The notes: a model not told the origin generated them from the letters alone. 64,000 nt of DNA from an uncultured bacterium (GCA_963736115.1 CAVTNR010000014.1:1-64000), one strand, 5' to 3'. Positions 15,511-55,989 are shown, numbered from the stretch's first letter. Made by a program: numbers and translations.

Positions 15511-15537
15511 TGAACCATGAACTATGAACTATGAACT
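15511..15537. repeat. Heptamer element locus 1: solo right arm
   Basis: T tract then TGAACC ATGAACT ATGAACT ATGAACT; no left arm seen. Confidence 0.85.
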
Positions 15538-15744
15538 TTTTTGAGGGAGCCCAGCCATGAAATCCAGCCAGCGCTCCTGTCCCGTGCGGCACGACAGCCG
15601 GTTTTTTTCACTGCGCCTCTGCGAGGGATGCATGAAATCCGGATGCCCTGAATTTGAAACCGCCGATACGCAAAGCCCGGCTGTCCAATCTGCATGGCCG
15701 CCGGTCTACATGGAACCGGTTTACGCCGAGTGTGAAAACCGAGA

Positions 15745-17130
15745 ATGACGGATCATAGGAAAATCGTCTTCGGACCCGACTGTGTCCCCGGATCCCGCGT
15801 CACGGTCCTCGGCGCGGCCCGGAGCGGACTGGCCGCGGCTGAATTGCTCAGGCGGCACGGCGCGTCCGTGTTTCTGAGCGAATCCGCGCCGGCCGCGGAT
15901 TTGGCCGAAGCGGTTCAGCGGCTTTCAGCCGCGTCCATTCCGGCGGAGTTCAACGGCCATTCCGACCGCGCGTTTGAAGCGGACTGGATTCTGGTCAGCC
16001 CCGGCATTCCGCCGCATGCGGCCGCGCTGAAAACCGCACGGGATAAAGGGATCCCGGTGGCGGGCGAACTGGAAGCCGCTTCCTGGTATTGCCGGGCGCC
16101 CATCGTCGGAATCACCGGGTCCAACGGCAAATCCACGGTGACCGCGCTGACGGGTGAAATCCTGAAAGCCGCGGGGCTGCCCGTGGTCGTGGCCGGCAAC
16201 ATCGGCCGGGCTTTTTCCGAGGACGCGGAGAAAGCGGCGCCCGAAGGGGTTGCGGTGATCGAAGTGAGCAGTTTTCAGCTGGAAACGGCGCACACCTTCC
16301 GGCCGAGGGTCGCGATTTTTCTCAATCTCACGCAGGATCACATCAATTGGCACGGTTCCTTCGAGGCCTACGGACGCGCCAAGGCCGGGATATTCCAGAA
16401 CCAGACCGCGGAGGACACACTCGTCTATTTCGCCGCGGATGCAGGCGTGGCCCGGCTCGCGGCTTCCGCACGGTCCAAACGGGTTTGTTTCGACTTCGCG
16501 TCGTCCGGAGATCCGTGCGGCTTCGTCCGTTCGGGCATTCTGATGCTCCGCGAATCGGGCGCGGAGACCGAACTCCTCCCGGTGGACAGCCTCGGGATAC
16601 GCGGCGAGCACAATGTCCTGAACGCGCTGGCTTCCGCGCTGGCGTGCCGGGCGCTGAACGTTCCTCTGGAGCCTATCCGCCGGACGCTCCGTGCGTTCCG
16701 CGGACTGCCGCACCGGCTCGAATTCGTGCTCGAAAGCGGCGGTGTCGCCTGGATCAACGACTCCAAGGGAACCAATGTCGACTCGGTCCGGTACGCGCTG
16801 GGCAGTGTCGCCCGGCCGGTCGTCCTCATCGCCGGAGGCAGGGACAAGGACTCGGATTTCACGGTGCTGAGGGACGGACTGAAGTCTGCCGCCCGCGCCG
16901 TCATTCTGATCGGCGAAGCGGCCGGCAAGATGGAGAAGGCCTTTACGGGCGCCTGCCCGACGGTGCGGGCCGGATCGCTCCGGGAGGCGGTGGCGCAGGC
17001 CCGATCGCTGGCGCGTCCCGGCGACGCCGTTCTGCTGTCGCCTGCCTGCGCGAGTTTCGACATGTTCCGAAATTTCGAGGACCGGGGCGACCAATATAAG
17101 GCCCTGGTTCGGGAGGGGACAGGTCCATGA
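15745..17130 (+). CDS. murD: UDP-MurNAc-L-Ala:D-Glu ligase
   Basis: GAARSG, ITGSNGKST, EVSSFQLE, HRLE, NDSKGTN, LSPACASFD. Confidence 0.96.
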   Translation: MTDHRKIVFGPDCVPGSRVTVLGAARSGLAAAELLRRHGASVFLSESAPAADLAEAVQRLSAASIPAEFNGHSDRAFEADWILVSPGIPPHAAALKTARDKGIPVAGELEAASWYCRAPIVGITGSNGKSTVTALTGEILKAAGLPVVVAGNIGRAFSEDAEKAAPEGVAVIEVSSFQLETAHTFRPRVAIFLNLTQDHINWHGSFEAYGRAKAGIFQNQTAEDTLVYFAADAGVARLAASARSKRVCFDFASSGDPCGFVRSGILMLRESGAETELLPVDSLGIRGEHNVLNALASALACRALNVPLEPIRRTLRAFRGLPHRLEFVLESGGVAWINDSKGTNVDSVRYALGSVARPVVLIAGGRDKDSDFTVLRDGLKSAARAVILIGEAAGKMEKAFTGACPTVRAGSLREAVAQARSLARPGDAVLLSPACASFDMFRNFEDRGDQYKALVREGTGP

Positions 17131-18272
17131 CCAGCCGTCATCCGATGGATAAAATTCTCCTGCTGGCGGTGCTCGCCCTGCTGACGATCGGGTGCCTCAT
17201 GATCTACAGCGCGAGCGCGTTCTGGAGCGCGGACCGGAACCAGGATAATTACAGCGCGATTCTCATGCGGCACCTCATGCGGGTGAGCCTCGGACTGTTG
17301 ATCATGGTCGCGGTTTCGCGGATCGACTACCACCGGTACCGGTCCTGGGCCCCGGTCCTGCTGGCGGTGTTCGCCGTTCTGCTGGTGGCGGTGCTCTTCA
17401 CGCCGCGGTTCAGGGGTTCGAGCCGGGCGTTTTCTCTGCCCATGGGCCGGTTTCACCCGGCGGAATACATGAAACTGGTGATGGTGCTCTTCCTTTCCTC
17501 CGTTCTGGCCCGGACGCCTCCGACCCGGGACCTCATGGACCGCAGACTGATGGTGCATTACGGCATTCTGCTCGGCGTGACGACGCTGGTGCTGGTCGAG
17601 CCCGACCTGGGCACTGCGTCCGTTCTATTTGCCGCCGGTATGGTCCTTTTCTACCTGGCAGGCACGCCCGGAGACAGGCTCGCGAAAATGGCGCTCGTCG
17701 TCTCGCCATTCGTCTGCATCGGCATGGCGGTGAACGGCTATCAACGGGAGCGACTCGTCGATTTCGCGCGGTCCAAGGCCGGGCTGGAGCCCCTTCCGTA
17801 CCAGGTCAAGCATTCGCTCATCGCCCTGGCGAACGGCGGCTGGCTCGGGCTCGGATACGGCGAGGGCCGGGCGAAGGACCTGTATCTGCCGGAGCCGTTT
17901 TCGGACTTCATTCTCGCCACGCTGGGCGAGGAATTCGGGTTCGTCGGAGTCTGCGTCCTGTTCGGCGTCGTCGCGATCCTGCTCTGGCGCGGGACGCGCA
18001 TTGCCCTGCACGCGCCGGACCGTTTCGGCTTTCTGGCCGCCGCCGGAATCACCTCGCTTCTCCTGATCAATGCGCTGATCAACGCCGGTGTGGTATTGCA
18101 TCTGATCCCCACGACCGGCCTGCCGTTTCCGTTCGTCAGCTACGGCGGTTCGTCCCTGTTCGTTTACATGGCCGGAATGGGCGTTCTGCTGAACATTTCC
18201 GGCCAGGCGGTTCCATCGTTCCACCAGTTCACCACGGAAAGGGGCCGTATCCGGTGGCCCGAGTTGCGTTAA
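17127..18272 (+). CDS. ftsW: SEDS peptidoglycan glycosyltransferase
   Basis: YSAS, EPDLGT, YLPEPFSDF, PTTGLPFPFVSYGGSS. Confidence 0.93.
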   Translation: MTSRHPMDKILLLAVLALLTIGCLMIYSASAFWSADRNQDNYSAILMRHLMRVSLGLLIMVAVSRIDYHRYRSWAPVLLAVFAVLLVAVLFTPRFRGSSRAFSLPMGRFHPAEYMKLVMVLFLSSVLARTPPTRDLMDRRLMVHYGILLGVTTLVLVEPDLGTASVLFAAGMVLFYLAGTPGDRLAKMALVVSPFVCIGMAVNGYQRERLVDFARSKAGLEPLPYQVKHSLIALANGGWLGLGYGEGRAKDLYLPEPFSDFILATLGEEFGFVGVCVLFGVVAILLWRGTRIALHAPDRFGFLAAAGITSLLLINALINAGVVLHLIPTTGLPFPFVSYGGSSLFVYMAGMGVLLNISGQAVPSFHQFTTERGRIRWPELR

Positions 18273-18282
18273 GGAGCGCCGC

Positions 18283-19371
18283 GTGCGTGTGATTCTGACC
18301 GGCGGCGGAACGGGGGGGCATCTGTACCCCGCGCTGGCCGTTGCCGAGGAAATCAAAAAACAGACATCCTGCGAGTTGCTCTTCATCGGCACGCGACGGG
18401 GCCTTGAAGCCTCGGTCGTGCCCGGCCTGGGCATCCCGTTCAGGACGGTCTGGATCGGCGGGCTCAAGCGGGGCCGCATCGCCGCGAACCTGACATTTCC
18501 ACTGAAAATGGCTGTTTCTCTCATACAGGCGCTCTTCCTGTGCGTCCGATTCAGGCCCGACGCGGCCGTCGGCACCGGGGGATATGTGAGCTGGCCGGTC
18601 ATTACGGCGGCCTCGATTCTGGGATGCTACACGGCCGTCCAGGAACAGAACGAAAAGCCGGGGCTGGTCACGCGCCTGCTCGGACGGCGTGCCGACGCCG
18701 TGCATCTGAGTTTCGAATCCTCATCCCGTTTTTTCCGGAACCGTGAACGTCTGCATGTCAGCGGTAATCCCACGCGTCCGGAAGTGGAAAAGCCGAGGAC
18801 GGAGGCCGTGTATCGGCTTTTCGGCCTCAGTCCGGACCGGTTCACGATCCTGGTGTTCGGCGGCAGTCAGGGCGCGAGGAGCCTGAACGAGGCATTCACC
18901 GCGATCGCGCCGTCCCTCATTGAGCGGACGGGCAGTCAGATTCTGTGGGCCGCCGGTCCGCGCTGGCACGATTCCCTGAAACCGGCGGCGGAAGCACTGG
19001 CCGGCCGGGCCGCGGTTCTGCCGTATCTGGCCGATATGGGAAGCGCCTATGCCGCGGCCGACCTGGTGGTGTGCCGGTCCGGCGCGGGGGCTGTGGCGGA
19101 AATCGCGCGGCTCGGGAAACCGGCCGTTTTCGTGCCCTTTCCGGGCGCCGCGGACGGACATCAGGAGGCCAATGCGGCCGTGCTGGCCGCGGCCGGCGCC
19201 GCGAGAATGGTCAGGGAAGGGGAGGGATTCGCCGGTCGGCTTGAGACGGAAATCCTCGGTCTGGCCGCGGATCGTGACAAGCGGCTGTCTCTCGGGCTGA
19301 AGGCCTCGGCCTTCGGCCGGCCGGAGGCGGCCCGGGCCATCGCCCGTCAGATCATCGAGGGAGCGTCATGA
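18283..19371 (+). CDS. murG: Lipid II synthase MurG
   Basis: TGGGTGGHLYP, GGYVS, EQN, GGSQGA, HQEANA. Confidence 0.96.
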   Translation: MRVILTGGGTGGHLYPALAVAEEIKKQTSCELLFIGTRRGLEASVVPGLGIPFRTVWIGGLKRGRIAANLTFPLKMAVSLIQALFLCVRFRPDAAVGTGGYVSWPVITAASILGCYTAVQEQNEKPGLVTRLLGRRADAVHLSFESSSRFFRNRERLHVSGNPTRPEVEKPRTEAVYRLFGLSPDRFTILVFGGSQGARSLNEAFTAIAPSLIERTGSQILWAAGPRWHDSLKPAAEALAGRAAVLPYLADMGSAYAAADLVVCRSGAGAVAEIARLGKPAVFVPFPGAADGHQEANAAVLAAAGAARMVREGEGFAGRLETEILGLAADRDKRLSLGLKASAFGRPEAARAIARQIIEGAS

Positions 19372-20771
19372 CGAAAACAGGGGACCGCAGGCCCATTCTC
19401 GGACGGACCCGGCGCGTCCATTTCACCGGCATCGGCGGCATCGGCATGAGCGGCATCGCCGAAGTGCTGATCAACCTGGGATTCACGGTCACGGGGTCCG
19501 ACCGGGTCCTATCGCCGATCACGGAGCATCTCCGGTCACTGGGCGCGGACATCCGCGAGGGTCATTCCGGAGACGCGGTCCGCGACGCGGACGTCGTTGT
19601 CATTTCCTCCGCGGTCCGGCCGGACAATCCCGAGGTGATCGCCGCGCATGACCTGAAAATCCCCGTCATCCGCCGCGCCGAGATGCTCGGCGAGCTCATG
19701 CGCATGAAGCAGGGCATCGCCGTCGGGGGCACGCACGGCAAGACGACGACCACATCGATGATCGGGCTCGTCCTTCAGGAGGGCGGGTTCGATCCGACCC
19801 TCATCGTGGGCGGCCGGCTCAAGAGCCTGAAGACGAACGCCCGTCTTGGAGAGGGGGACTACCTGGTGGTCGAGGCAGACGAATTCGACCGGTCCTTCCT
19901 CAGCCTGACCCCGACGGTGGCCGTGGTCACCAATATTGAGAGCGAACACCTCGACTGCTACAAGGACCTCGACGAGATCAAGCGCACCTTCGTCTCCTTC
20001 GTCAACAAGGTGCCTTTCTACGGGGCCGCGGTGCTGTGCCTGGACGAACCCGCGATTCAGGAGATTCTGCCCCGCATCGAGCGCCGCATCATCACCTACG
20101 GGCTGACGCCGCAGGCGGACTGCCGCGCCGCGGATTCCGCCTTCCGGGAAACGCTCAGCGAATTCACCGCGGTCTGGCGGAACGAAAGCCTGGGGCGCAT
20201 CCGGCTGCAGCTGCCCGGACTCCACAATGTGAAAAACGCACTGGCCGCGGTGGCGGTCGGACTCGAACTCGAAATCCCGTTCGACTCGGTCCGGCGCGGG
20301 CTGGAGGAATTCACCGGCGTGCACCGGCGCTTCGAAATCAAGTCCGCGACCGGGGATGTGATCGTCGTCGACGATTACGCCCACCACCCGACGGAAATCA
20401 AGGCCACGCTACGCGCGGCCCGGACGGGATGGAACCGGCGCGTCATTGCGGTCTTCCAACCCCACCTGTACTCGCGGACGCGGGACTTCCACCAGGAGTT
20501 CGGCCAGTCGTTCTTCGACGCCGACATTCTGATTGTCACCGATGTGTACGGATCGCGAGAGGATCCCATCCCGGGCGTGAGCGGGGCGCTGGTGGCCGAC
20601 GCGGCCAAGGCCTTCGGCCACAGGCGCGTGGTCACGGTCCAGGACCCGGCCGCAGCGGCCGAAGCCGTGCTGGGAATCGTCCGGCCGGGAGACCTGGTCG
20701 TCACTTTGGGCGCAGGCGACATATACAGGGCCGGGGAAGCGGTGATCGCAGGACTCGGCGGGGGAAAATGA
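19368..20771 (+). CDS. murC: UDP-MurNAc:L-Ala ligase
   Basis: GIGGIGMSG, GTHGKTTT, EADEFD, DDYAHHPTE, FQPHLYSRT. Confidence 0.97.
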   Translation: MTKTGDRRPILGRTRRVHFTGIGGIGMSGIAEVLINLGFTVTGSDRVLSPITEHLRSLGADIREGHSGDAVRDADVVVISSAVRPDNPEVIAAHDLKIPVIRRAEMLGELMRMKQGIAVGGTHGKTTTTSMIGLVLQEGGFDPTLIVGGRLKSLKTNARLGEGDYLVVEADEFDRSFLSLTPTVAVVTNIESEHLDCYKDLDEIKRTFVSFVNKVPFYGAAVLCLDEPAIQEILPRIERRIITYGLTPQADCRAADSAFRETLSEFTAVWRNESLGRIRLQLPGLHNVKNALAAVAVGLELEIPFDSVRRGLEEFTGVHRRFEIKSATGDVIVVDDYAHHPTEIKATLRAARTGWNRRVIAVFQPHLYSRTRDFHQEFGQSFFDADILIVTDVYGSREDPIPGVSGALVADAAKAFGHRRVVTVQDPAAAAEAVLGIVRPGDLVVTLGAGDIYRAGEAVIAGLGGGK

Positions 20772-21688
20772 GCGCGAAAACGGACATGTTCCGGACGCTC
20801 AACCGGGCCGTGCGCGGCCGCCTGCTGGAGGATGAATCGCTGTCCGGCCACACCTCTTTCCGGATCGGGGGGGCCGCGGATTTCTGGTTTCTTCCGAAGG
20901 ACATCGAGGACCTGAGCGCCGGACTGAAAGCATGTACGGAGGACGGCGTTCCGGTGTTCGTCATCGGCCGCGGCACCAACCTGCTCGCGGCGGACGCTGG
21001 GTTCCGCGGCGTGGTGTTCGATCTCGCCGAAACATTTTCCGGAATGTCCGGTGAAGGGCCGGAAGTCAATGCGGGCGCCGGCGGCCTGCTCTGGGACCTG
21101 CTGAATTTCTGCGCCGCCCGGGGACTGTCCGGATTCGAGGCGCTCGCCGGCATACCGGGGTCCGTGGGCGGAGGCGTCCGGCTGAACGCCGGCGCATTCG
21201 GCCGGGAGATCCGTGACAACCTGGTGGACGTCATAGCCGTCGAGGCGGACGGGACCGTCACGGTCCGCGACCGCGATGCCCTGGCCATGGGATACAGAAG
21301 CACCGCCCTGCCCGAGGGGAGCGTCGTGGTGAGCGCCCGCTTCTCCTTCGAACCCGGCGATCCCCTCCGCATGAAGGCCGAACAGGAGGCCGTACTTGCC
21401 AGACGGCGCGAAAAACAGCCCCTGTCCATGCCGTCGGCCGGGTCCGTATTCAAGCGGCCGCCCGGGGATTTCGCAGGCCGCCTCATCGAGGACGCCGGGC
21501 TCAAGGGCCTGCGCATCGGAGACGCGATGGTGTCGGGCAAGCATGCCAATTTCATCGTCAATGTCGGATCGGCCAGCGCGTCGGACGTGAAGGCCCTCAT
21601 CGACGAAATACGCGGCCGCGTCCTCGCCCGCTTCGGCGTGACGCTCGAGCCGGAAATCCGATTCCTGGGATTCGGGGAGTCGGCGTGA
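20768..21688 (+). CDS. murB: UDP-GlcNAc-enolpyruvate reductase
   Basis: HTSFRIGG, GIPGSVGG..NAGA, QP..PSAGSVFK, KHANF; start chosen at the ATGA overlap with murC. Confidence 0.95.
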   Translation: MSAKTDMFRTLNRAVRGRLLEDESLSGHTSFRIGGAADFWFLPKDIEDLSAGLKACTEDGVPVFVIGRGTNLLAADAGFRGVVFDLAETFSGMSGEGPEVNAGAGGLLWDLLNFCAARGLSGFEALAGIPGSVGGGVRLNAGAFGREIRDNLVDVIAVEADGTVTVRDRDALAMGYRSTALPEGSVVVSARFSFEPGDPLRMKAEQEAVLARRREKQPLSMPSAGSVFKRPPGDFAGRLIEDAGLKGLRIGDAMVSGKHANFIVNVGSASASDVKALIDEIRGRVLARFGVTLEPEIRFLGFGESA

Positions 21689-21698
21689 AGGACGGTTC

Positions 21699-22442
21699 AT
21701 GAAAAAGTGGTTCCTGGCATTCCTTTTCTCCGTGACCGCGGCGGTATTTCTGTTCGCCGGTCTTCCGGCCTACCGCCGCTGGCTGCGGACCGATTCCTCG
21801 TTCCGCGTCCGCAGGGTCGTGGTGGAGGGAAATGACCTGATTCCCGCGGACGATGTGCTTCGCCGCGCGGATATACGGAAAGGCCGGACGATCTGGGCCG
21901 TTGACCGGCCGGCCGCGGAAAAACGCATTCTCCGCAATCCCTTTGTCGAGCACGTCACGGTGTACCGCGGATTCCCGGACATGGTCCGCGTCCGCGTCAC
22001 CGAGCGAAAGCCCGTGGTTCTGCTGAAAACCGGCGGCCGGTTCCACACGCTCGACCGGAACCGGGTTCTGATGCCGGCGCCCCCGGGCCGCTGCTACACC
22101 CTTCCGATTCTTTCCGTGGACGAAATGCCGGAAACCGCCCCGGGCGGCACCGTCGAGGATCCGCGGGTATCCGAAGGCCTGGCCTTCCTCGAATCGATGC
22201 TCCGGGACCGGCCCGGCCTGTACGGCCGGATCTCGGAAATCCGGCCCGATCCCAGGGAAGGCGTCATTCTCACCACTTCGAACGGGGGCATTCCGGTGCG
22301 GATCGGCCGCAACGGGTATGAATGGAAGGTGCGGTACCTGGAGGCCATTCTGAACGAACTGGAAACTCATCCCGCGTTAACCCATGCCTCGTACATCGAC
22401 CTTCGTTTCGAGGGCCAGGTGTTCGTGGGCTTCGGAGCCTGA
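21699..22442 (+). CDS. ftsQ: Cell division protein FtsQ
   Basis: TM helix, POTRA-like region, VTERKP, C-terminal YIDLRF; position before ftsA. Confidence 0.88.
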   Translation: MKKWFLAFLFSVTAAVFLFAGLPAYRRWLRTDSSFRVRRVVVEGNDLIPADDVLRRADIRKGRTIWAVDRPAAEKRILRNPFVEHVTVYRGFPDMVRVRVTERKPVVLLKTGGRFHTLDRNRVLMPAPPGRCYTLPILSVDEMPETAPGGTVEDPRVSEGLAFLESMLRDRPGLYGRISEIRPDPREGVILTTSNGGIPVRIGRNGYEWKVRYLEAILNELETHPALTHASYIDLRFEGQVFVGFGA

Positions 22443-22445
22443 GCC

Positions 22446-23710
22446 ATGATGCGATCCGCCCCGTCACGCACAAACGAGGACCGGCGTATCACCGCCGGTC
22501 TCGACATCGGAACCAGCAAGATCGCCCTGATCATCGGGGAACTGGAGCCGGACGGCGGCGTGTCCGTGCTCGGTGTGGGCACCAGCCCCTCGGTCGGCCT
22601 GCGGCAGGGCGTGGTGATCAATCTCGATCAGACCGTGGAGTCGATTCAGCGCGCGGTCCAGGAGGCCCAGCTGACCGCGGGATTCGAAATCCGCGAGGCC
22701 GTGGTCGGCATTTCCGGGGACCACATCCAGGGCGTCAACAGCCGGGGGTAGTGGCCGTCTCGGGCGCGGACCATGAGATCGTCCAGGGAGACGTGGACCG
22801 GGTGCTGGAGGCCGCCACGGCATTCAATCTCCCGAAGGACCGTCAGGTCCTGCATGTGCTCCGTCAGGAATTCCTGGTGGACAGCCAGGCCGGGATCAAG
22901 AACCCCATCGGCATTTCAGGCGTCCGCCTCGAGGCGGAGGTTCATATCGTCACCGGTTCGAGCACGATTTCGGAGAACATCGTCAAGGCCGTGGAAAAGG
23001 CCGGCATCACCGTCACGGATCTGGTGCTCGAGCCCCTGGCCTCGGGCGAGGCGGTGCTCGACGCGAATGAGAAACAGCTCGGGGTCGCCCTGCTCGACGT
23101 CGGCGGCGGGACCACCGATATCGTTCTCTTCTTCGACGAGGCGATCCGCCACACCGCGGTGATTCCGCTCGGCGGTCAGAACGTGACGAACGACATCGCC
23201 CTGGGCATGAAGACGCCGCTCGAGCAGGCCGAGGACATCAAGCGCAAGCACGGCTGGGCCTACCGCCCGCTCGCCCCGAAAAGCGAGCGCATCCTCGTGC
23301 CCGGCATCGGGAGCCGAAACGCGCGTGAAGCGACCCTCGACGTGCTGACCAGCGTCATTCAGCCCCGCATGGAGGAAATCTTCAGCCTCGCGGCCAAGGA
23401 AATCAAGCGTTCGGAATTCGCCGGCCGCCTGGCCGCCGGCGTGGTGCTCACGGGCGGCGGCTCCCTTCTGAAGGGCTGCGCCGAGCTGGCCGAGGAGGTG
23501 TTCGGCATGCCCGTGAGCGTGGGCGTTCCCAAGGGATTTTCCGGGCTCGTGGAATCCGCATCGAGCCCGGTGTTCTCAACGGGCGTGGGACTGCTGTTCT
23601 GGGGCCAGACCGGCGCGGGCGCGCCCGGCAAGGCAGTCCGGCATTCCCGGAAGGACCGGCTGGGCGGCATCGGCCGGTCGTTGAAACGGTTCATGAGCGA
23701 TTATTTCTAA
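22446..23710 (+). CDS. ftsA: Cell division protein FtsA (1-nt deletion in G run at 22744-22748)
   Basis: GLDIGTSK, then in the next frame GVRLEAEVH, DVGGGTTD, LTGGGS. Confidence 0.95.
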
Positions 23711-23727
23711 ATCGAAGGAGGTTCCGC

Positions 23728-24960: not shown

Positions 24961-24982
24961 GGGAATCCGCGGCGTGCGCGGG

Positions 24983-27381: not shown

Positions 27382-27523
27382 AGTTCATGGTTGATAGTTC
27401 ATAGTTCATAGTGAAAAACAGCGCATGTTGCGTGATGAATGTAGCCGCCAAGATATATTTATTTTTTTTGGGGGGGGAGGGACTGGTGGGGAACTATGAA
27501 CCATGAACTATGAACAATGAACT
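27382..27523. repeat. Heptamer element locus 2 (SDR / folB)
   Basis: AGTTCAT GGTTGAT AGTTCAT AGTTCAT starts directly after TAA; right arm ATGAACC ATGAACT ATGAACA ATGAACT. Confidence 0.92.
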
Positions 27524-27545: not shown

Positions 27546-27920
27546 ATGCTCATCCGCATCAAGAACCTGAAATTGAAAACCATCATCGGCGTTCATCCCC
27601 GCGAGCGCAGGCGCCGGCAGAAGGTCGTTCTGAACATCGAAATGGACGTGGACGGCCGGAAGGCGGTGGCGGCCGATGACATCGCTGCCGCCGTGGATTA
27701 CCGGACCGCGACCAAGTCCGTGCTCCGGTTCGCGGAGGCGTCCCGGTTTTTCCTGCTGGAGTCCCTGGCCACAGGCGTTCTCGACATGCTGATGCGGGAC
27801 GGACGCGTGCGGTCCGCGACCGTCGAGGCGGATAAGCCCGGCGCCCTGCGTCATGCGGAGTCCGTTTCAGTGACCGTGTCCGGAACGCGGCCGGCCCGAA
27901 GAAAAGTACATAGTTCATAG
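27546..27920 (+). CDS. folB: Dihydroneopterin aldolase/epimerase (FolB/FolX family)
   Basis: IRIKNL..IIGV...ER...Q, VDY, FLLESLA, KPGAL. Confidence 0.85.
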   Translation: MLIRIKNLKLKTIIGVHPRERRRRQKVVLNIEMDVDGRKAVAADDIAAAVDYRTATKSVLRFAEASRFFLLESLATGVLDMLMRDGRVRSATVEADKPGALRHAESVSVTVSGTRPARRKVHSS

Positions 27921-28003
27921 TCCATCGTTCATAGTGAAAAACAGATTCTGTCTCTTTTTCGCTTTTTCTTTAACCATGAACTATGAACCATGAACTATGA
28001 ACT
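27905..28003. repeat. Heptamer element locus 3 (folB / folK)
   Basis: AGTACAT AGTTCAT AGTCCAT CGTTCAT ... ATGAACT ATGAACC ATGAACT ATGAACT; the left arm contains the folB stop. Confidence 0.92.
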
Positions 28004-38158: not shown

Positions 38159-38251
38159 GGTTCATAGTTCATGGTTCATAGTTCATAGAAAAAGAAGTGC
38201 AGGTAAATCTTTTTTTTCCTCTTTTCAACCATGAACTATGAACTATGAACT
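38159..38251. repeat. Heptamer element locus 4 (rpoN / hslV)
   Basis: GGTTCAT AGTTCAT GGTTCAT AGTTCAT starts directly after TAA; A-rich then T-rich spacer; AACC plus 3x ATGAACT. Confidence 0.93.
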
Positions 38252-38262
38252 TCAGAATTTAA

Positions 38263-45287: not shown

Positions 45288-45291
45288 GACC

Positions 45292-45753
45292 ATGACCAAG
45301 GAAGACCGATATGAGGCCGCGCTCCGGGAAATCGACGTCCGCCTGGCGAAAGGCGGCGATCTCGTCGCGGACCTGGGCAACGCGGCCGCGGTGCTGAAAA
45401 AGAGGCTGGACGGCCAGGCGTCGTGGATCGGCTTTTATTTCGTCCGCGGAGACAAACTCGTCCTCGGACCCTTCCAGGGCAGGCCGGCCTGCGTGTTCCT
45501 GCCTTTCGGAAAGGGCGTATGCGGCACCTGCGCCGCGATGCGCGAGACCATCAACGTGCCCGACGTTCACGCCTTCGAGGGCCATATCGCCTGTGATCCG
45601 GATTCCAAGTCGGAGCTCGTCGTCCCCGTGTTCGACGGCAACGGCGCGGTCCGCGCCGTGCTCGACATGGATTCCGACCGGCCGGCCGCTTTCGACGCGG
45701 TCGACATCCGCTTCGCCGAGCGTCTCGCGGCGCGTCTGGCGTGCATTTGGTGA
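45292..45753 (+). CDS. msrC: GAF-domain free methionine-(R)-sulfoxide reductase-like protein
   Basis: WIGFY, LGPFQG..AC, GKGVCG, HIACD..SKSE, VLDMDS. Confidence 0.85.
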   Translation: MTKEDRYEAALREIDVRLAKGGDLVADLGNAAAVLKKRLDGQASWIGFYFVRGDKLVLGPFQGRPACVFLPFGKGVCGTCAAMRETINVPDVHAFEGHIACDPDSKSELVVPVFDGNGAVRAVLDMDSDRPAAFDAVDIRFAERLAARLACIW

Positions 45754-45775
45754 ACCGAATCCGGAGAACCATTCC

Positions 45776-47245: not shown

Positions 47246-47258
47246 ACCGGAGCGGATC

Positions 47259-47633
47259 ATGGAAAAGGACCTTGACGCATTCGCCGGCTACCGTGAACGC
47301 ATGAACACTGAAATCCTGGATTCCGGCAACCTCGACCTCAAACGGTTTTTCGCCCTCGACTCGGCCGTGTACCGCGAAGGAGCGATCCCGCCGAAAACCA
47401 AGGAGCTGCTCGGTCTCGTTGCCTCCCTGGTGCTCCGGTGCGACGACTGCGTGCTGTACCACCTGGTCCGGTGCGGCGAGGAGGGCGTTTCGGACGCGGA
47501 ATTCCAGGAAACGGTTTCCATCGCGCTGGTCGTCGGCGGGTCGATCACCATTCCCCATCTCCGGCGCGCGTTTGAGATGTGGGCAAAAATACAGGACCGG
47601 AAAAAGACGGATGGAGCTCAGGGAAAAACTTGA
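47259..47633 (+). CDS. Carboxymuconolactone decarboxylase/AhpD-like protein
   Basis: KTKELLGLVAS..LRCDDC..YH. Confidence 0.85.
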   Translation: MEKDLDAFAGYRERMNTEILDSGNLDLKRFFALDSAVYREGAIPPKTKELLGLVASLVLRCDDCVLYHLVRCGEEGVSDAEFQETVSIALVVGGSITIPHLRRAFEMWAKIQDRKKTDGAQGKT

Positions 47634-48861: not shown

Positions 48862-48987
48862 CTCGTTTATACATTCGAACGTCCGGCGGTCGCCCTGAGG
48901 TTCACTCTTCTGATTTGCCCCCGAAGGACCTCATGACAGAAACGATTTCGACGTCGGATCACGGCGATCGACTTTACAGGAGACCCC

Positions 48988-49512
48988 ATGATATTCCTTA
49001 AACTGATCTCCAAACTCATCAGCATGCTCCGCTCCGCGGACTCGGCGTCGGGAATTGCCTGGGGATTCAGCCTCGGCGCGGTGCTCGGGCTGACCCCTTT
49101 TCTGGGCTTACACACCGCGGTAGTCATTCTGCTGATCTGTATGCTCCGGGTAAACGTATCGGCCGCCCTGTTTGCCTGGCTTCTGTTCGGCGCAGTCGCG
49201 TGGGTGCTGGATCCGGTTTTTCATACGCTCGGCTTTTACGTGCTCACCGGCATTCCAGCGCTTGAGCCGTTCTGGACGGACCTGTACAACGCGCCCGTCG
49301 CGCCGCTGACCCGCTTCAACAATACGGTCATGATGGGCAGTTGGATCGTGAGCCTGCTTCTCATGATTCCCAATTACATTCTGTTCCGCGCTTTCGTTCT
49401 CCGGTACCGGGAATCGTGGAACGCCAAAATCGCTCAATGGAAATGGGTAAAGGCGGCCGGCGCATCCGGATTTGTCCAAACCCTCTGGAAAATCCGCGGA
49501 TTGGAGGTCTGA
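48988..49512 (+). CDS. TIGR03546-like membrane protein
   Basis: LGLTP, LDPVFH.LG, LYNAP....RFNNTVMMG. Confidence 0.75.
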   Translation: MIFLKLISKLISMLRSADSASGIAWGFSLGAVLGLTPFLGLHTAVVILLICMLRVNVSAALFAWLLFGAVAWVLDPVFHTLGFYVLTGIPALEPFWTDLYNAPVAPLTRFNNTVMMGSWIVSLLLMIPNYILFRAFVLRYRESWNAKIAQWKWVKAAGASGFVQTLWKIRGLEV

Positions 49513-49513
49513 C

Positions 49514-51424
49514 ATGGGAACAAAACAGACACCGCGGCCCAAGGGATGGATACGCTGGAACGGTCTCATCGCAGCTGTCGTGCTTGCGGCGGGCTGGTTG
49601 CTGATCACCACCGTGTTCATGGACCGATGGCTGGAATGGGGCGTCGAGAAGGCGGGGGAGGAAGCCCTCGGGGCGAAAGTCGAAATAGACGGATTCGATT
49701 TGAAGCTTTCAGACCTGTCCGTCCGCTGGACCCGCCTGCAGGCCGCTGATCCCGGCCGGCCCATGCGGAATATCCTCGAAACAGGCCGGAACTCATTCCG
49801 GATGAATCCCACGGCTTTGCTGAGGAAGCGGTTCGTCATCGAGGAGATGATCCTGGAGGACGTTCGCTCCGGAACGGCGCGCCGGACGGACGGATCCCTG
49901 GCCCGGAAGCCGAAGCTGGCCCGAAAAATCCGGTCCGATTTCATCGAAGAAGTCAAGGCCGATATCCGGAAGGACGTGGAAGCCCTGCCGAAAATGAATT
50001 TTGACCCGGCCTTATTCAGGCGCAGGCTGAACGTGGACAGCCTCATCGCCCTGTCCGGCATCCGGAGCGTCCATCGCATTGATTCCGTCCGGAAAGAGGG
50101 AATCGCCGCGGCCGCAGGATGGACGGCCTTTCAGAAAAGCTTCCGACCGGACGAGGAACTGAAGCGCATCCGGGACGATTTTGAAGGTCTCGACCCGCAA
50201 GGAATCAAAACTGTTCAGGAGGGGCTTGCGCTGGTCGACAAAGCGGTAACGGCCCGGAAAAACCTGACCGCGATCGCGGACACGTTCGACGTGCGGCAGA
50301 GGGCGATACGCTCGGACATCCGTAGATTTTCCGCGGTTCCGGATCAGCTGGCCGGCTGGATTCAGGAGGATTACCGGACCGTGGCGGAAAAGGCGAAACT
50401 GCCGGACCTGTCGTTCCGCGCCATCGCCAAGAAACTCATCGGAGGCACTTTGGCATCCGCATCGGATTTTGTTCTCGACGCGTATCAAGGCCTCCTGGAA
50501 CAGCTTCCCCGGAAAGCCAAACCCGAGAAGCGATCCCGCCCCCGTTTCAAGGGCCAGGATATTCATTTCGAGGATCGGCACGAGGCGCCTGCTTTTCTCA
50601 TCCGCAGAATGAGCCTGTCCGGCCGGGTGGAGCCCGGTTCCGCTTACACGGACGTCAGCCTGTCCGGCAAGGCGGAAAACATCACGAACCAGCCCTGGAT
50701 CACCGGAAAGCCCATGACCGTGGACATCACCGCCCGGGCCCCGGACGGCCGCACCGCCGTGCTGAACGGCATCCTGAACCGCGTCTCGGAAGCGGCCAGT
50801 GATGACTTCCGCGTTCGGGTGTCCCATCTCAGTCTGAACAGCGTCAGGATTATGAACTCCGAATACCTGCCCTCGGTCATCCGGAAAGGCCGAATGGATC
50901 TCGACCTGACCCTCCGGTTCCGGGAAAACGACTTTTCCGCGAGGCTCAACGCGGACGCCTCAGGCGTGGTTTTCGACTCTCTGGCCCATGCGTCCAGCGA
51001 CCTGTTCGCGGGTGTCGTGCAGTCCGTTATCGGGAAACTGGACCGCATCACGCTGGACGTGGCCGCGGACCGGAATCCCCGAGGCTTTCGTTTCAGCGTT
51101 GATTCCAATATCGACGAAGTGGCGTTGCGGGAGCTCCGGAGCCTCGGAGCCAAGGCTGTGGCCGACGCCGAGGCCCGGATTCGCTCGAAGCTGGTTGGGA
51201 TACGAGACGAGAAACTCGCGGAGTTCGAGGCTTCCGTCGGCGCAAAATACAAGGGTGTCGGGGAATTTCTGGACGGCTATGAGAAATGGATAGGGGATGA
51301 CCGATCGCTCCTCGACGGCAAAATCGAAGCCCTGAAAAAGGAAATCGACAAGCGCAAAAAGGCTGAGGAGAACAAGCTGAAGGACAGGGCGAAAGAAGCG
51401 CTGGATGGGGTGCTGAACAGATGA
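49514..51424 (+). CDS. TIGR03545-like protein (TM anchor, AsmA-like N-terminus)
   Basis: IRW.GL TM, GAKVEI, DP..PM.N, RFKG.DI.F; paired with the preceding gene. Confidence 0.72.
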   Translation: MGTKQTPRPKGWIRWNGLIAAVVLAAGWLLITTVFMDRWLEWGVEKAGEEALGAKVEIDGFDLKLSDLSVRWTRLQAADPGRPMRNILETGRNSFRMNPTALLRKRFVIEEMILEDVRSGTARRTDGSLARKPKLARKIRSDFIEEVKADIRKDVEALPKMNFDPALFRRRLNVDSLIALSGIRSVHRIDSVRKEGIAAAAGWTAFQKSFRPDEELKRIRDDFEGLDPQGIKTVQEGLALVDKAVTARKNLTAIADTFDVRQRAIRSDIRRFSAVPDQLAGWIQEDYRTVAEKAKLPDLSFRAIAKKLIGGTLASASDFVLDAYQGLLEQLPRKAKPEKRSRPRFKGQDIHFEDRHEAPAFLIRRMSLSGRVEPGSAYTDVSLSGKAENITNQPWITGKPMTVDITARAPDGRTAVLNGILNRVSEAASDDFRVRVSHLSLNSVRIMNSEYLPSVIRKGRMDLDLTLRFRENDFSARLNADASGVVFDSLAHASSDLFAGVVQSVIGKLDRITLDVAADRNPRGFRFSVDSNIDEVALRELRSLGAKAVADAEARIRSKLVGIRDEKLAEFEASVGAKYKGVGEFLDGYEKWIGDDRSLLDGKIEALKKEIDKRKKAEENKLKDRAKEALDGVLNR

Positions 51425-51451
51425 TGGGTGGTCGGCGTCCGTTTCTGCCAG

Positions 51452-51654
51452 AGTTCATAGTTCATGGTTCATAGTTCATTGTTTAAAGAGAATTAAATAA
51501 ACGAATCGAATTTTATCATATCCGGAATTATAAAAATGTCCAAAGGCCTCGTCCGCTTCGCGGCTTCGGCATTTCGGACCTACAGCTAACTTTTTCAACT
51601 CGGAACTCGGAACGTTTTTTTTAACTATGAACCATGAACTATGAACCATGAACT
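51452..51654. repeat. Heptamer element locus 5 (TIGR03545-like / hypF), long spacer with REP cargo
   Basis: AGTTCAT AGTTCAT GGTTCAT AGTTCAT ... ATGAACC ATGAACT ATGAACC ATGAACT. Confidence 0.93.
51535..51584 (-). repeat. GTAG-type REP-like hairpin, copy 2
   Basis: Plus strand AATGTCCAAAGGCCTCG...TCGGCATTTCGGACCTACA; matches 15422-15492. Confidence 0.7.
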
Positions 51655-51660
51655 TTGAAG

Positions 51661-54069
51661 ATGTCTCTCACCCGCACCCGCATTATCGTTACCGGTCTCG
51701 TTCAGGGCGTCGGATTCCGGCCCTTCGTGTACAGGCGGGCCGTGTCCCTCAACCTCAAGGGCTTCGTCCGCAATACGCCCGAAGGCGTCGAGATCGAGGC
51801 GGAAGGCGCTCCGGATTCCGTCCGGACACTGATCGAGTCGCTGAAAGCCGGTCCCCCTCCTCAGGCGGAGGTGCGTTCCGTTGAATTCCGGTCCATGCCC
51901 GCGTCCGGCGGAACGGAATTTGAAATCCGGGAAAGCGCGGGAGAGGCGGCTGGTTCCGCGCTGGTATCCCCGGACATCGCAACCTGCCCGGACTGTCTCG
52001 CTGAACTTTTCAATCCCTCGGACCGGCGTACCCGTTATCCCTTCATCAATTGCACCAATTGCGGCCCGCGTTTCACTATTATCAAGGGCGTTCCGTACGA
52101 CAGACCGGCCACGACCATGGCATCCTTCACCATGTGCCCGGCGTGCCGGGCCGAATATGAGGACCCGGCGGACCGGCGTTTCCACGCACAGCCCAACGCC
52201 TGCCCGGTTTGCGGCCCCAGACTGATGCTTGCGGACACGGACGGGATGGAAATCCTCACGCCGGAAAGGGATGCGATCGCGGAAGCGGCTCGCAGAATCC
52301 GGGACGGACAGATCATCGCAATCAAGGGGCTGGGCGGATTCCATCTGGCCTGCGATGCGGAGAACGATGAAGCGGTTCTCAGACTGAGGGCCAGAAAAGG
52401 CCGGGAAGAAAAACCGCTGGCGGTCATGGCCCGGGATCCCGAAGCCGCATCCCGGTTCGCGGTCTCATCCGAATGTGAAACCGCGGCGATGCTTTCCTGG
52501 CGGCGGCCCATCGTCCTGCTTGGTAAACGGATCCCGTTTCCCCTGGCCGGGTCCGTGGCGCCGGGAAACGCATTCATCGGCGTGATACTGCCCTATACGC
52601 CTGTTCATCATATGCTCATGGCTGAAAGTTTTCGTGCGCTTGTCATGACGAGCGGCAATGTTTCGGAACAGCCCATCGCGTACACGAACGGGGAAGCCCT
52701 GGCCAGCCTCGCGGGTATCGCGGACGGATTCCTCCTCCACGACCGGGACATCCGCGTCCGCAACGACGACTCGGTGGTCCGGTTCAGCCGCGGCGTTCCG
52801 GTGTTCATCCGGCGTTCGCGGGGATGGGCGCCTTCGCCGGTTCACCTCGGCCTGTCCGGTCCGTCCGTGGTCGCGGTCGGGGCGGAGATGAAGAACACGA
52901 TCTGCCTCACGGCCGGGGACAAGGCCTTTATCAGCCCCCATATCGGCGATTTGGAGAACGCGGAAACACTCGAATCCTTCGAGTCCGCGGTCGGGCACCT
53001 GTCCCGGCTGTTCGACGTCCGGCCCGAAATCGCGGTTCATGACTTGCATCCGGATTACCGGTCGACCCAGTGGGCCCTGAACCGGTCGGGGCTGAAGACC
53101 GAGGCTGTTCAGCACCACCATGCCCATATCGCCTCCTGCCTGGCTGAAAACGGGAGAACCGGACCTGTCATCGGATTCGCGCTGGACGGAACCGGATTCG
53201 GTCCGGACGGAACGGTATGGGGCGGGGAAATCCTGGTCGCGGATTGCCTCCGTTTCGAAAGAGCGGGTCATTTTTCGGTCCGTTGCATGCCCGGCGGCGC
53301 GGCCGCGATACACGAACCCTGGCGCATGGCCCTCTCTTTCATGGAAGCCGCGTTCAGGCACGTAATCGATCCAGGAATGACTGAGGACGTCCTTCTGCGG
53401 AAAGCAACCGAAGTGCCGGCTTTCCGGGAAGCCGGCTCCGGGAAGGTCCGATCCGTCATCCGGCTGATCCGTTCCGGGATACACCAGCCTGCCACTTCAA
53501 GCCTGGGGAGGCTGTTCGATGCGGTTTCGGCTCTGGCCGGGGTCCGATCCGTTTCCACTTATGAAGGACAAGCCGCATCCGACCTGGAGGCTGTTCTGTA
53601 TACTTCTGCACACATCGGGAATCAAGGAAATGTTGCTTCAGCGGAAATTCGGAAAAACGGGGGAAATACGGCGGTCGCAGTGGATATCGAACCGTATGTA
53701 TTTGAAATAAAAGAAATTAACGGAATTTTTGAAATCGATCCTGATCCCATTATTTTTGCGGTGCTGAAAGACGCTCAGGCCGGATTTTCAGTATCCGGCA
53801 TCAGCCGGAAATTCCACCTGGCATTGATCCGGGTTTTTGTCCGTATCGCAGAGCGGATACGGGATAAAACCCGCCTGTCCACAGCCGCATTGAGCGGCGG
53901 CTGTTTCCAGAACCTGTTTCTCCTCGACAACCTGTCCGCGGAACTGGGTAGGGCCGGTTTCGAAGTGCTGTCCCATTCACTCGTGCCCGCCAATGACGGG
54001 GGGCTGTGCCTGGGCCAGGCGGCCGTGGCCCATGCCCGAATGCGGGCGTCAAGCAGGGTCCGGGCCTGA
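51661..54069 (+). CDS. hypF: [NiFe]-hydrogenase maturation carbamoyltransferase
   Basis: GLVQGVGFRP, zinc fingers CPDC/CTNC and CPAC/CPVC, KGLGGFHL, QHHHAH, DGTGFG, PANDGG. Confidence 0.96.
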   Translation: MSLTRTRIIVTGLVQGVGFRPFVYRRAVSLNLKGFVRNTPEGVEIEAEGAPDSVRTLIESLKAGPPPQAEVRSVEFRSMPASGGTEFEIRESAGEAAGSALVSPDIATCPDCLAELFNPSDRRTRYPFINCTNCGPRFTIIKGVPYDRPATTMASFTMCPACRAEYEDPADRRFHAQPNACPVCGPRLMLADTDGMEILTPERDAIAEAARRIRDGQIIAIKGLGGFHLACDAENDEAVLRLRARKGREEKPLAVMARDPEAASRFAVSSECETAAMLSWRRPIVLLGKRIPFPLAGSVAPGNAFIGVILPYTPVHHMLMAESFRALVMTSGNVSEQPIAYTNGEALASLAGIADGFLLHDRDIRVRNDDSVVRFSRGVPVFIRRSRGWAPSPVHLGLSGPSVVAVGAEMKNTICLTAGDKAFISPHIGDLENAETLESFESAVGHLSRLFDVRPEIAVHDLHPDYRSTQWALNRSGLKTEAVQHHHAHIASCLAENGRTGPVIGFALDGTGFGPDGTVWGGEILVADCLRFERAGHFSVRCMPGGAAAIHEPWRMALSFMEAAFRHVIDPGMTEDVLLRKATEVPAFREAGSGKVRSVIRLIRSGIHQPATSSLGRLFDAVSALAGVRSVSTYEGQAASDLEAVLYTSAHIGNQGNVASAEIRKNGGNTAVAVDIEPYVFEIKEINGIFEIDPDPIIFAVLKDAQAGFSVSGISRKFHLALIRVFVRIAERIRDKTRLSTAALSGGCFQNLFLLDNLSAELGRAGFEVLSHSLVPANDGGLCLGQAAVAHARMRASSRVRA

Positions 54070-54188
54070 GCCGCTTTTTTCGGTGTTGTTTTATTTGGAT
54101 GTTTTTATTATCTTGAAAAAAGGACTTGTTCGCTTACCGGTTTCTCTTACCTGCGACTTTATGCATCCTAGCGTTTCTCGGATCGGGA

Positions 54189-54557
54189 ATGCGGAAAAAT
54201 CCGTTTCGGCCGGAGTCTGCGACTTACGGAAAGTCATTTTTTCCGTATCAGTATGCGGTCACGCTCTTCATCATCCTGATTCTTTGCCTGGTCGACGGCG
54301 GACTGACGATTTTTCTCGTCAAGAGAGGGGCCTGGGAAGCCAACCCGCTGATGCGGCATGCCCTTTCAATCAGTCACGAATACTTCATCATTCTGAAGTA
54401 CTTTCTGACGGCCGGAGGATTTCTCTTTCTGATGCATCACGGCCGTAGGCGGATTTTCCGGGGCATCATGACTCTTGAGGAACTGACAGGGGGCATTCTC
54501 CTGTTCTATTCCGGTCTGGTCATTTACGAGATCACCATCTACCATATCGTCAAATAG
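54189..54557 (+). CDS. Small membrane protein, DUF5658-like
   Basis: Three to four hydrophobic helices, D..LT......G..EANPLM motif; start uncertain (54126 possible). Confidence 0.65.
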   Translation: MRKNPFRPESATYGKSFFPYQYAVTLFIILILCLVDGGLTIFLVKRGAWEANPLMRHALSISHEYFIILKYFLTAGGFLFLMHHGRRRIFRGIMTLEELTGGILLFYSGLVIYEITIYHIVK

Positions 54558-54566
54558 CAGCCCTTT

Positions 54567-54785
54567 ATGTGCCTGGCCATACCCATGCGATTGACCGAGA
54601 TCCGGGACGACCGGGGCGTTGCCGAAGCCGGCGGCGTCCGGCGTGAGGTCGGTCTGCAGCTGCTTGACGGACTGCAGGTCGGCGATTATGTTCTCGTGCA
54701 CGCCGGATTCGCCATCCAGAAAGTGGACGAGGAGGAAGCGCGGAAGACCCTGGACCTGTTCCGCGAGCTCGGTCAGGATTTTTGA
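54567..54785 (+). CDS. hypC: Hydrogenase maturation chaperone
   Basis: MCLAIP, GDYVLVHAGFAI. Confidence 0.96.
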   Translation: MCLAIPMRLTEIRDDRGVAEAGGVRREVGLQLLDGLQVGDYVLVHAGFAIQKVDEEEARKTLDLFRELGQDF

Positions 54786-55867
54786 AGTACGTGGACGAAT
54801 TCCGCGACGGCCGCGCCGGCCGGAAGCTCGTTGAGGAAATACGCGAGGCTGCGCCGGACCGGCCCCTGACGCTGATGGAAGTGTGCGGCACCCACACCAT
54901 GGCAATCGCGCGGTTCGGCATACGGCCGCTTCTGCCGCCTTCCATCCGCCTCATTTCAGGGCCCGGGTGCCCGGTCTGCGTCACGCCCCTGGCATACATG
55001 GACCAAGCAATGGCGATCGGCCGGCTGCCCGACGTGACCCTGGCCGTTTTCGGGGACATGATGCGTGTTCCCGGATCCGCATCGAGCCTCGAACGGGAGG
55101 CCGCTTCGGGCGCGGACGTGCGGGTGGTCGCATCCACACTGGAGGCACTGGCTCTCGCGGAGCGGTTGAACCCCCGGACGGTGGTGTTTCTCGGCATCGG
55201 TTTTGAAACGACTGCGCCCACGGTGGCCGTTTCCCTGGTCAATGCACGGCGCAGGGACCTGGCGAATTACACGGTGCTCTGCGGACACAAGACCATGCCG
55301 GGCGCTCTGGCCGTACTGGCGGCAGGGAACCCGAGGCCGGACGGGTACCTGTGTCCCGGACACGTCAGTGTGGTGATCGGATCCGGCGCATATGAAGGGA
55401 TTGTCCGGGATTTCGGCATCGGATGCGTGATCGCGGGTTTCGAGCCCTTGGACATACTCCAGGCGATATGGATGCTCGTGCTTCAATCCGCGTCCGGCGT
55501 TCCGGCTGTTGAAAATCCCTACAGCCGCGCGGTGACCGCGGGCGGGAACGGACGCGCCCGCGAGGCGATGGAAACGGTTTTCGAGCCCTGCGATTCGGAA
55601 TGGCGGGGGCTCGGCCGGATTCCGGGAAGCGGCCTCAGAATCAGGGCGGAATTCGCGGATTTCGACGCGGCTGTGCGTTTTCCGGTTTCGATCGCGCCCG
55701 CGTCCGATCCCCCGGGATGCCGGTGCGGCGAAGTGCTGACCGGAGCCTTACGGCCGGCCCAATGCGGCCTGTTCGGCAAAGCCTGCACGACCGACCATCC
55801 GGTCGGGGCTTGCATGGTCTCCTCTGAAGGAACCTGCGCGGCGGCGTACAGATATGGGACGGAATAA
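54782..55867 (+). CDS. hypD: Hydrogenase maturation protein
   Basis: MEVCGTH, GPGCPVC, GFETT, PGHVS, CMVSSEGTC. Confidence 0.96.
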   Translation: MKYVDEFRDGRAGRKLVEEIREAAPDRPLTLMEVCGTHTMAIARFGIRPLLPPSIRLISGPGCPVCVTPLAYMDQAMAIGRLPDVTLAVFGDMMRVPGSASSLEREAASGADVRVVASTLEALALAERLNPRTVVFLGIGFETTAPTVAVSLVNARRRDLANYTVLCGHKTMPGALAVLAAGNPRPDGYLCPGHVSVVIGSGAYEGIVRDFGIGCVIAGFEPLDILQAIWMLVLQSASGVPAVENPYSRAVTAGGNGRAREAMETVFEPCDSEWRGLGRIPGSGLRIRAEFADFDAAVRFPVSIAPASDPPGCRCGEVLTGALRPAQCGLFGKACTTDHPVGACMVSSEGTCAAAYRYGTE

Positions 55868-55869
55868 CG

Positions 55870-55989
55870 AGTTCATAGTTTATAGTTCATAGTTCATAGA
55901 AAAGAGAGGAAAAAAGTAAAATTCAGGATTTTTTTTAACTATGAACCATGAACTATGAACTATGAACTTTTTCCCATGAACCATGAACT
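55870..55989. repeat. Heptamer element locus 6 (hypD / hypE)
   Basis: AGTTCAT AGTTTAT AGTTCAT AGTTCAT ... 4x ATGAACY, plus two further units at 55976-55989. Confidence 0.93.

Follow-up and report, generated by a model that had tools for sequence, protein, structure and literature searches.

The PF05635/TIGR02436 family of four-helix-bundle proteins was first found inside the intervening sequences (IVSs) of 23S rRNA. It is a very large family and, to our knowledge, its function is known nowhere outside diversity-generating retroelements. Heptamer repeats have been noted in bacteria for decades, and we know of no explanation for them. Here we analyze a 64,000-nucleotide stretch of DNA from an uncultured bacterium (contig C14:1-64000 of the source genome G000; hereafter, the window), in which six loci carry elements with arms made of tandem heptamers, and we compare them with the rest of the G000 assembly (3.34 Mb, 31 contigs, 60% GC, 87% complete) and with related genomes. 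These elements tie the PF05635/TIGR02436 family to the bacterial heptamer repeats.

The repetitive extragenic palindromic (REP) sequences, BIMEs and REPIN-RAYT systems of Proteobacteria consist of many short palindromes that lie after genes or within operons, have a species-specific consensus at conserved sites and include a gene copy flanked by its cognate repeats. The Correia/NEMIS elements of Neisseria are small, have terminal inverted repeats and sit in operons, where they are co-transcribed and cleaved by RNase III at their long stems; they are defined by unique 26-bp repeats and a TA duplication. Dispersed heptanucleotide repeats are known in cyanobacteria as STRR sequences. Repeats of the TAACTGA heptanucleotide have been reported in Beggiatoaceae, cyanobacteria and Bacteroidetes (PMC4679880, in the part available), and four- and five-unit heptanucleotide elements in Geobacter metallireducens (PMC2700814, also in part). 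Finally, the 23S rRNA IVS of Coxiella burnetii has a 28-bp terminal stem and 3-4 tandem heptamers before the S23p open reading frame (ORF), and RNase III cuts it at the first repeat, according to the available text of PMC4990558.

The loci of the window are well supported as members of a family of IVS-type hairpin cassettes, which are mostly empty, have long resided at gene junctions and carry lineage-specific arm units. We further consider, with a probability of roughly 0.6, that the gene-less copies are ancestral residents of their junctions, whose co-transcribed arms would form an RNA duplex cut by RNase III. The family is represented in the window by the following loci:

27382-27523, gene-less element 1: left arm 27382-27409 (four units, one of them degenerate), 86-nt loop, right arm 27496-27523.
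27905-28003, gene-less element 2: degenerate left arm 27905-27932, 43-nt loop, right arm 27976-28003.
38159-38251, gene-less element 3, at the rpoN/hslV junction: left arm 38159-38186, 44-nt loop, right arm 38231-38251 (three units).
51452-51654, composite element 4: left arm 51452-51479, 147-nt loop, right arm 51627-51654.
51536-51584 and 51600-51613, inside the loop of element 4: a half REP-like element and an inner two-unit CGGAAC arm, respectively.
55870-55989, gene-less element 5, at the hypD/hypE junction: left arm 55870-55897, 43-nt loop, right arm 55941-55968, and two more right-arm units at 55976-55989.
15403-15537, decayed composite 3' of mraY (stop at 15397), lacking a left arm: two-unit CGGAAC-type remnant 15403-15416, half of an unrelated REP-like element 15423-15492, a T-run, and outer right arm 15510-15537.

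The first-pass annotation of the window had proposed five two-armed loci and one solo right arm at 15511. Inspection of the sequence found every arm of the five pairs where it had been placed, and our gene calls reproduced exactly the distances then given from the upstream stop codon to the left arm (0, -16, 0, 27 and 2 nt): the arms of elements 1 and 3 start 0 nt past the stop (a TAA in element 3), those of elements 4 and 5 start 27 and 2 nt past it, and the gene upstream of element 2 terminates on a TAG within the arm. The right arms end, as had also been read, about 6-23 nt ahead of the next start codon. The right arm at 15511 does exist (15510-15537), but it is the outer arm of the decayed composite that follows mraY and not a solo one.

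With one mismatch at most, the two-unit motif RGTTCATRGTTCAT has 32 matches in the window against a mean of 0.03 in dinucleotide shuffles, none of the 100 shuffles reaching 32, and Tandem Repeats Finder recovered the same period-7 arrays. A search of the window against Rfam gave no match at the gathering score and no family at any of these loci. When four of the elements were folded as RNA, the stabilities ranged from -32 to -50 kcal/mol with z from -6.3 to -9.8 (element 1, -50.4 kcal/mol, z -6.3; element 2, -32.4, z -7.4; element 3, -36.2, z -7.4; element 5, -40.3, z -9.8), and none of 200 shuffles was equally stable.

The proposal of a dispersed family was borne out by a genome scan for RGTTCAT-type arrays, which gave about 100 elements in G000. 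The scan recovered 204 arm arrays, with two to eight units each and exactly four (4 x 7 nt) in 134 of them. Neighbouring arrays are ordered left-then-right 85 times and right-then-left 20 times, and the 90 left-to-right pairs merge into 85 elements. The element consensus is (AGTTCAT)4, AGTTAAAAAGA, about 22 variable nt, TCTTTTTAACT and (ATGAACT)4. Spacers of 43-45 nt account for 31 of the 90; they start with AGTTAAAAAGA and end with TCTTTTTAACT, lengthening the palindrome, and their central 22 nt or so are unrelated among copies. The default loop has an A-run at its start and a T-run at its end. Most gene-less loops measure 24-170 nt, and no ORF was found in the six window loci or in most of the other copies.

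Counting every period-7 array of G000 gave 112 left and 112 right arms of the GTTCAT/ATGAAC type, 32 left and 31 right arms of the GTTCCG/CGGAAC type, and 4 left and 5 right arms of the GTTCAA/TTGAAC type. The arms pair by type (72 CAT-CAT, 9 CCG-CCG and 2 mixed pairs). Genome-wide, the arms are both paired and positionally biased, being matched by unit type and placed at gene ends.

One copy of the family carries a gene. This cargo copy spans C5:127814-128337, at the gpsA/asnS junction, and ends in (AGTTCAT)4-GGTTAAAGAA ... TTTTTTCCAACT-(ATGAACT)4, with arms as in the gene-less elements, with which it also has in common the subterminal AGTTAAAGAA and TTTTTCCAACT. Between the arms lies a PF05635 match (C5:127908-128225), whose 136-aa product matches PF05635 (E 5e-35), TIGR02436 (116 bits, cut-off 24) and PDB entry 2gsc (E 1e-17), and Avd only below the cut-off. 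Its relatives 2gsc and 2rld are pentamers, with five chains each. The first-pass annotation had linked such inverted arms to four-helix-bundle (TIGR02436) genes, and had suggested that the window loci might be empty derivatives of a cargo-carrying element. Since G000 has a copy with this type of gene between identical arms, both ideas hold.

PF05635 was also the only gene found between matching arms in G000. The profile search of this genome gave two PF05635 matches only, and the second one (C9:146382-146690, minus strand) has native GC content and no arms. This C9 gene has an open frame of 187 aa, with an N-terminal extension encoded by 12-nt tandem repeats, and three sister species (G001, G002 and G003) have PF05635 matches that score like it, in open frames of 187-223 aa. 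A GxxExxY/PDDEXK_3 gene was also considered as cargo and discarded: the single gene of this type, located in the window at 60950-61294 (+) (PF13366, E 3e-26, native GC content), has no repeat arms.

The association is not restricted to this genome. Exact GTTCAT arrays of four units turn up in at least 118 stretches, which come from many phyla; left-right pairs with a separation of about 50 nt are frequent among them. Of 29 PF05635 loci sampled in the phylum, 17 have the gene spanned by an exact inverted repeat of 10 nt or more, in most cases 7-periodic. A complete Mucilaginibacter chromosome has private 7-periodic inverted arms at 7 of its 7 PF05635 genes, one of them of the GTTCAT/GTTCAC type, and four more gene-less GTTCAT arrays elsewhere. 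The idea that a shared heptamer goes with a similar protein was rejected, the G000 protein being 26% identical to the GTTCAT-armed Mucilaginibacter protein and 24-31% identical to other paralogues.

The 23S rRNA IVSs of Coxiella burnetii and Leptospira (S23p/PF05635 ORF), as described in the parts of the sources available, resemble the G000 elements in terminal inverted repeats that give a long stem (about 28 bp) with tandem heptamers in it, in the protein family found in the loop of the full-length G000 copy and in being an insert within a longer transcript. The G000 copies differ in their location, which is between protein or tRNA genes and not in helix 25 or 45 of 23S rRNA, and in being mostly ORF-less and present in about 100 copies per genome. 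In addition, cutting by RNase III has been demonstrated in Coxiella (again in the text available), and is a prediction for the G000 elements.

The position of the elements with respect to the genes is tightly constrained. Among the 85 elements, 52 lie between co-directional genes, 18 between convergent and 5 between divergent ones, and 10 have one flank uncalled. Where the 3' end of a gene faces an element (90 cases), the arm begins -23 to +10 nt from the stop codon in 67 (median, +5). On the far side of the element the first start codon is at a median of 32 nt, an approximate value because the called start codons are approximate. Gene end and arm overlap in 19 of the 90 cases, with an in-arm TAG serving as the stop in 15, at -9, -16 or -23; the 5 nt that precede such an arm are A-rich. 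The provision of TAG stops or ATG starts in three frames was ruled out as the function of the family, since the GTTCAA and GTTCCG units of the sister species contain neither; the in-arm TAG is all the same a real side effect in G000, at those 15 gene ends.

The elements are found between tRNA genes as well. In the tRNA cluster C8:221239-221964 (L155 6740-7465; Gln, Arg, Glu, Arg, ...), each of three successive tRNA-tRNA spacers contains one element. A solo left arm is located 3' of a tRNA-Ser gene (L155 8265-8292). A terminator-like, bidirectional loop (A-run, GC hairpin and T-run) is present at 7 of 18 convergent vs 1 of 50 co-directional junctions, which indicates that the loops carry locally fitting sequence. 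No continuation of the palindrome was found past the arm ends. Neither target duplications nor heptamer-flanked RAYT genes, which the first-pass annotation had not seen in the window, were found genome-wide; direct repeats of k=3-8 beside the arms were not above those of shuffled partners (for k=5, 9 vs 5.8, maximum 14).

The comparison with three sister species of the same genus (G001, G002 and G003) and with a member of a different genus (G004) revealed that the same junctions are mostly occupied by elements with other repeat units. Of 41 related genomes, three had the GTTCAT pattern, and these three belong to the same genus. Three-unit hits, which are lower bounds in the sister species because several of their contigs (e.g., L131, L133, L134 and L136) end inside heptamer arms, number 191 CAT, 32 CCG and 11 CAA in G000; 62, 146 and 16 in G001; 15, 27 and 161 in G002; 0, 37 and 121 in G003; and 0, 1 and 0 in G004. 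An apparent absence of the elements from G003 was therefore false, as this species uses other units.

At the level of single junctions, 12 G000 junctions set against the three sister species provided 27 comparisons, with GTTC-type arms in 23, another 7-periodic palindrome in two (G001) and no recognisable arms in two (G003, at 27905 and at one solo-arm site). The unit type was unlike that of G000 in 22 of the 23 comparisons with GTTC-type arms. Thus, junction 27382 has GTTCCG-type arms in G001 and G003 and GTTCAA-type arms in G002; junction 27905 has GTTCAA arms in G002 and the other palindrome in G001; rpoN-hslV has GTTCCG arms in G003; and hypD-hypE has GTTCAA arms in G002 and G003 and GTTCCG arms in G001. 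At junction 51452 the loops of G000 and G002 agree at 82 of 95 positions, a stretch that comprises 43 nt present only once in G000. All four units of the left arm are GTTCAT in G000 and GTTCAA in G001, G002 and G003, so the arms changed while the loop stayed.

The cargo cassette is likewise found at gpsA-asnS in four genomes, with GTTCCG/CGGAAC arms in G003 and G001, and with GTTCTG/CAGAAC arms and a truncated ORF in G004. The two arms always match, so complementarity has been kept through changes on both sides. Between G000 and G003 the interior of the cassette is 56% identical, vs 90% for 600 nt of either flank, and the proteins are 58.6% identical. Other PF05635 genes with further private units are present in G004 and G001, and gene-less copies of those units lie at other junctions. 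One such palindrome family of G001 (L130, L119 and L145) has 7-periodic arms with a constant GAT (gattgaa gattgca gatcaac gatctca); it occupies junctions where G000 has GTTC-type elements, and encloses a PF05635 gene of its own.

The first-pass annotation had named orthologous junctions of relatives as the place to seek filled and empty alleles, and both are present. The hypD-hypE spacer measures 0-31 nt (heuristic ends) in 11 of the 26 genomes listed, every one of these 11 being a member of another family of the order, and the rpoN-hslV junction lacks heptamer arms in G017, G014 and G008, also from other families, in a comparison where most other genomes have a different upstream gene. Other occupants of hypD-hypE were observed in other families: a 163-nt run of direct GGATAAA/GAGAAAA heptamers in G030 (L245), and an element of 188-250 nt with ACTTTTG..AAATT inverted ends in G018 (L248) and G021 (L250). 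The evolutionary picture is one of fixed places, drifting loops, and arms that remain complementary while the unit is swapped between sister species.

These features allow the family to be compared with the other known repeats. Like the REP/BIME and REPIN-RAYT elements, it has intergenic palindromic copies, lineage-specific units and one repeat-flanked gene, and is rare in divergent promoter regions (5/85); unlike them, the flanked gene encodes a four-helix-bundle protein and not a Y1 transposase, and the arms are tandem heptamer arrays instead of a single palindrome of 20-35 nt. With Correia/NEMIS it has in common the small size, the inverted-repeat ends and the location in operons, and it differs in the heptamer arrays, the lack of a duplication and the linked protein gene. 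The dispersed heptanucleotide repeats, as far as the available parts of their descriptions go, also have 2-6 tandem 7-nt units at many loci per genome, mostly intergenic and near start or stop codons, some of the units with stop codons in three frames and the same unit in distant phyla; the arrays described there are, however, mainly direct. In the parts available, neither PMC4679880 nor PMC2700814 mentions a systematic hairpin pairing or a link to PF05635, and 'S23' and 'four-helix' appear 0 times in PMC4679880. A literature search restricted to partly accessible texts, with most subscription journals outside its scope, returned no account of PF05635-linked paired heptamer arms or of gene-less copies as a class.

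To account for these data, we favor the view that the cassettes would have entered stop-to-start, stop-to-stop and tRNA-to-tRNA spacers in the ancestor of the bacterial family and would have remained at those junctions. The loops may then drift or gain local functions, e.g., as terminators, while the arms would stay complementary as their unit is replaced lineage by lineage, GTTCAT in G000 and GTTCAA or GTTCCG in the sister species. The location of the elements in operons and tRNA clusters would put both arms in one transcript, and this is the basis of the RNA-processing reading: the co-transcribed arms are predicted to form an RNA duplex of 28-40 bp, which RNase III (encoded in G000 at C19:35401-35787) could cut by analogy with the 23S IVS of Coxiella, whose 28-bp stem contains heptamers, and this cutting would punctuate the transcripts of operons and tRNA clusters.

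Several observations weigh against this RNA-processing reading. The sense and antisense strands fold with equal stability (25 vs 25, Wilcoxon p 0.57), so that selection on RNA rather than on DNA is unsupported. With a terminator in 7 of 18 convergent loops, one transcript would seldom span both arms at such junctions. At the R/Y positions (first base of the left units and last base of the right units) the two arms of a locus complement each other in register less well than shuffled partners do (1.55 vs 2.11 of 4). Over all 4+4-unit pairs of G000 the fit at these positions improves after a one-unit slide; each stem therefore has a mismatch or wobble about every 7 bp, and the one-unit offset showed no correlation with the direction of the genes or of transcription. 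The 23S rRNA of G000 (C27) has no IVS, and no inverted repeat of at least 14 nt within 250 nt was found there. No short or clean empty site appeared in any of the 27 within-genus comparisons. The arms of the cargo gene are of the commonest type of the genome in only 2 of 3 genomes, the gene of G003 having GTTCCG arms where GTTCAA is the commonest. The gene calls come from a crude codon log-likelihood caller built by us. Finally, the uniformity of the arms, the change of unit between species at fixed sites and the private units of the PF05635 genes fit a partnership between repeat and protein at the DNA level equally well.

Such a partnership, which we take as possible with the odds clearly against it, would resemble a REPIN-RAYT system without the transposase: the arms would be putative arrays to which the ring-forming four-helix-bundle protein, or else a host factor, binds, its attachment to hairpins or duplex of DNA would drive arm copying or gene conversion, and the RNA hairpin would be a by-product. 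Binding-driven copying or conversion would make the arms of a genome uniform and let their units change together, as seen in the near-uniform arms at about 100 loci with unrelated loops and in the lineage-specific units of G000-G003. The private heptamer of each PF05635 gene, the whole mini-elements that flank some G004 genes as REPINs flank RAYTs, the equal folding of both strands, the low identity of the cassette interior and its protein relative to the flanks, and the pentameric relatives of the protein (2gsc and 2rld), to be set beside arms of 4-5 units, point in the same direction. Against this, the cargo protein has no known nuclease or recombinase domain, its only matches being to TIGR02436/PF05635 and, below threshold, to Avd; in addition, G000 has 63 GTTCCG-type arrays and no GTTCCG-armed gene, and the commonest arm type of G003 is not the one on its gene.

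A bolder proposal, which we find doubtful and put forward only tentatively, is that the four-helix-bundle ring protein reads its own private heptamer, and that the two form a self-homogenising pair that would write arrays past about 100 stop codons and tRNA ends and rewrite both arms in concert. If true, it would be a transposase-free counterpart of REPIN-RAYT and also a genome-wide regulon for operon punctuation. On the practical side, assemblies break at these repeats, and about one in five of the adjacent genes takes its stop codon from them (19/90 ends overlapping an arm).

In many bacteria heptamer repeats are reported to outnumber all other long simple repeats, with slippage as their proposed cause (PMC4679880, in the part available), which lends some weight to a neutral origin: heptamer microsatellites would expand in AT-rich spacers and become palindromic through hairpin-templated repair, giving hairpins without function or dedicated mobility, with the PF05635 gene as a passenger. 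The variable number of units (2-8, and up to 30 in other taxa) and the mixed units within single arrays (G001, junction B) agree with it. We nevertheless consider it improbable, because slippage at single loci fails to explain one unit type at about 100 loci and another in a sister species, and leaves without explanation the common subterminal AGTTAAAAAGA and TCTTTTTAACT, the modal loop of 43-45 nt, the four-unit mode (134/204), the tight placement past stop codons and tRNA ends, and the repeated association with one protein family in distant phyla.

It is very improbable that the elements are lineage-specific intrinsic transcription terminators or attenuators acting after each gene. Their location directly past stop codons, the A-run and T-run that begin and end the default loop, and the GC hairpin with A-run and T-run in 7 of 18 convergent loops would suit that role, but the arms are AT-rich with no consistent T-run behind them, a terminator-like loop occurs in only 1 of 50 co-directional junctions, and 52 of the 85 elements have co-directional neighbours in tight operons such as dcw, hyp and folate, and others are found between tRNAs, where termination would be harmful. 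Least probable of all is an ordinary miniature inverted-repeat transposable element or REP family that depends on a transposase gene at another site (RAYT/Y1 or DDE). It would fit the terminal inverted repeats, small size, high copy number, intergenic location and three weak Y1_Tnp (PF01797) matches of G000, but target-site duplications were not above shuffled controls (k=3-8), no heptamer array lay within 1.2 kb of any of the three Y1_Tnp matches, one of which is flanked by a different repeat, TGTAGGTCCGA, and the sole armed gene found was PF05635, with no transposase-bearing relative having the same ends.

This different repeat belongs to a second family, which was observed nested in the loops of the heptamer elements (51536-51584 and 15423-15492) and which has TGTAGGTCCGA...TCGGACCTACA ends and internal GC hairpins. 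The word TCGGACCTACA, the reverse complement word of the TGTAGGTCCGA repeat, has 52 copies in G000, counting both strands. The TGTAGGTCCGA/TCGGACCTACA repeat also borders a weak, RAYT-like Y1_Tnp gene (C19:57621-57866, in region C19:57349-58090), and the repeat and this gene together look like a REP/RAYT system.

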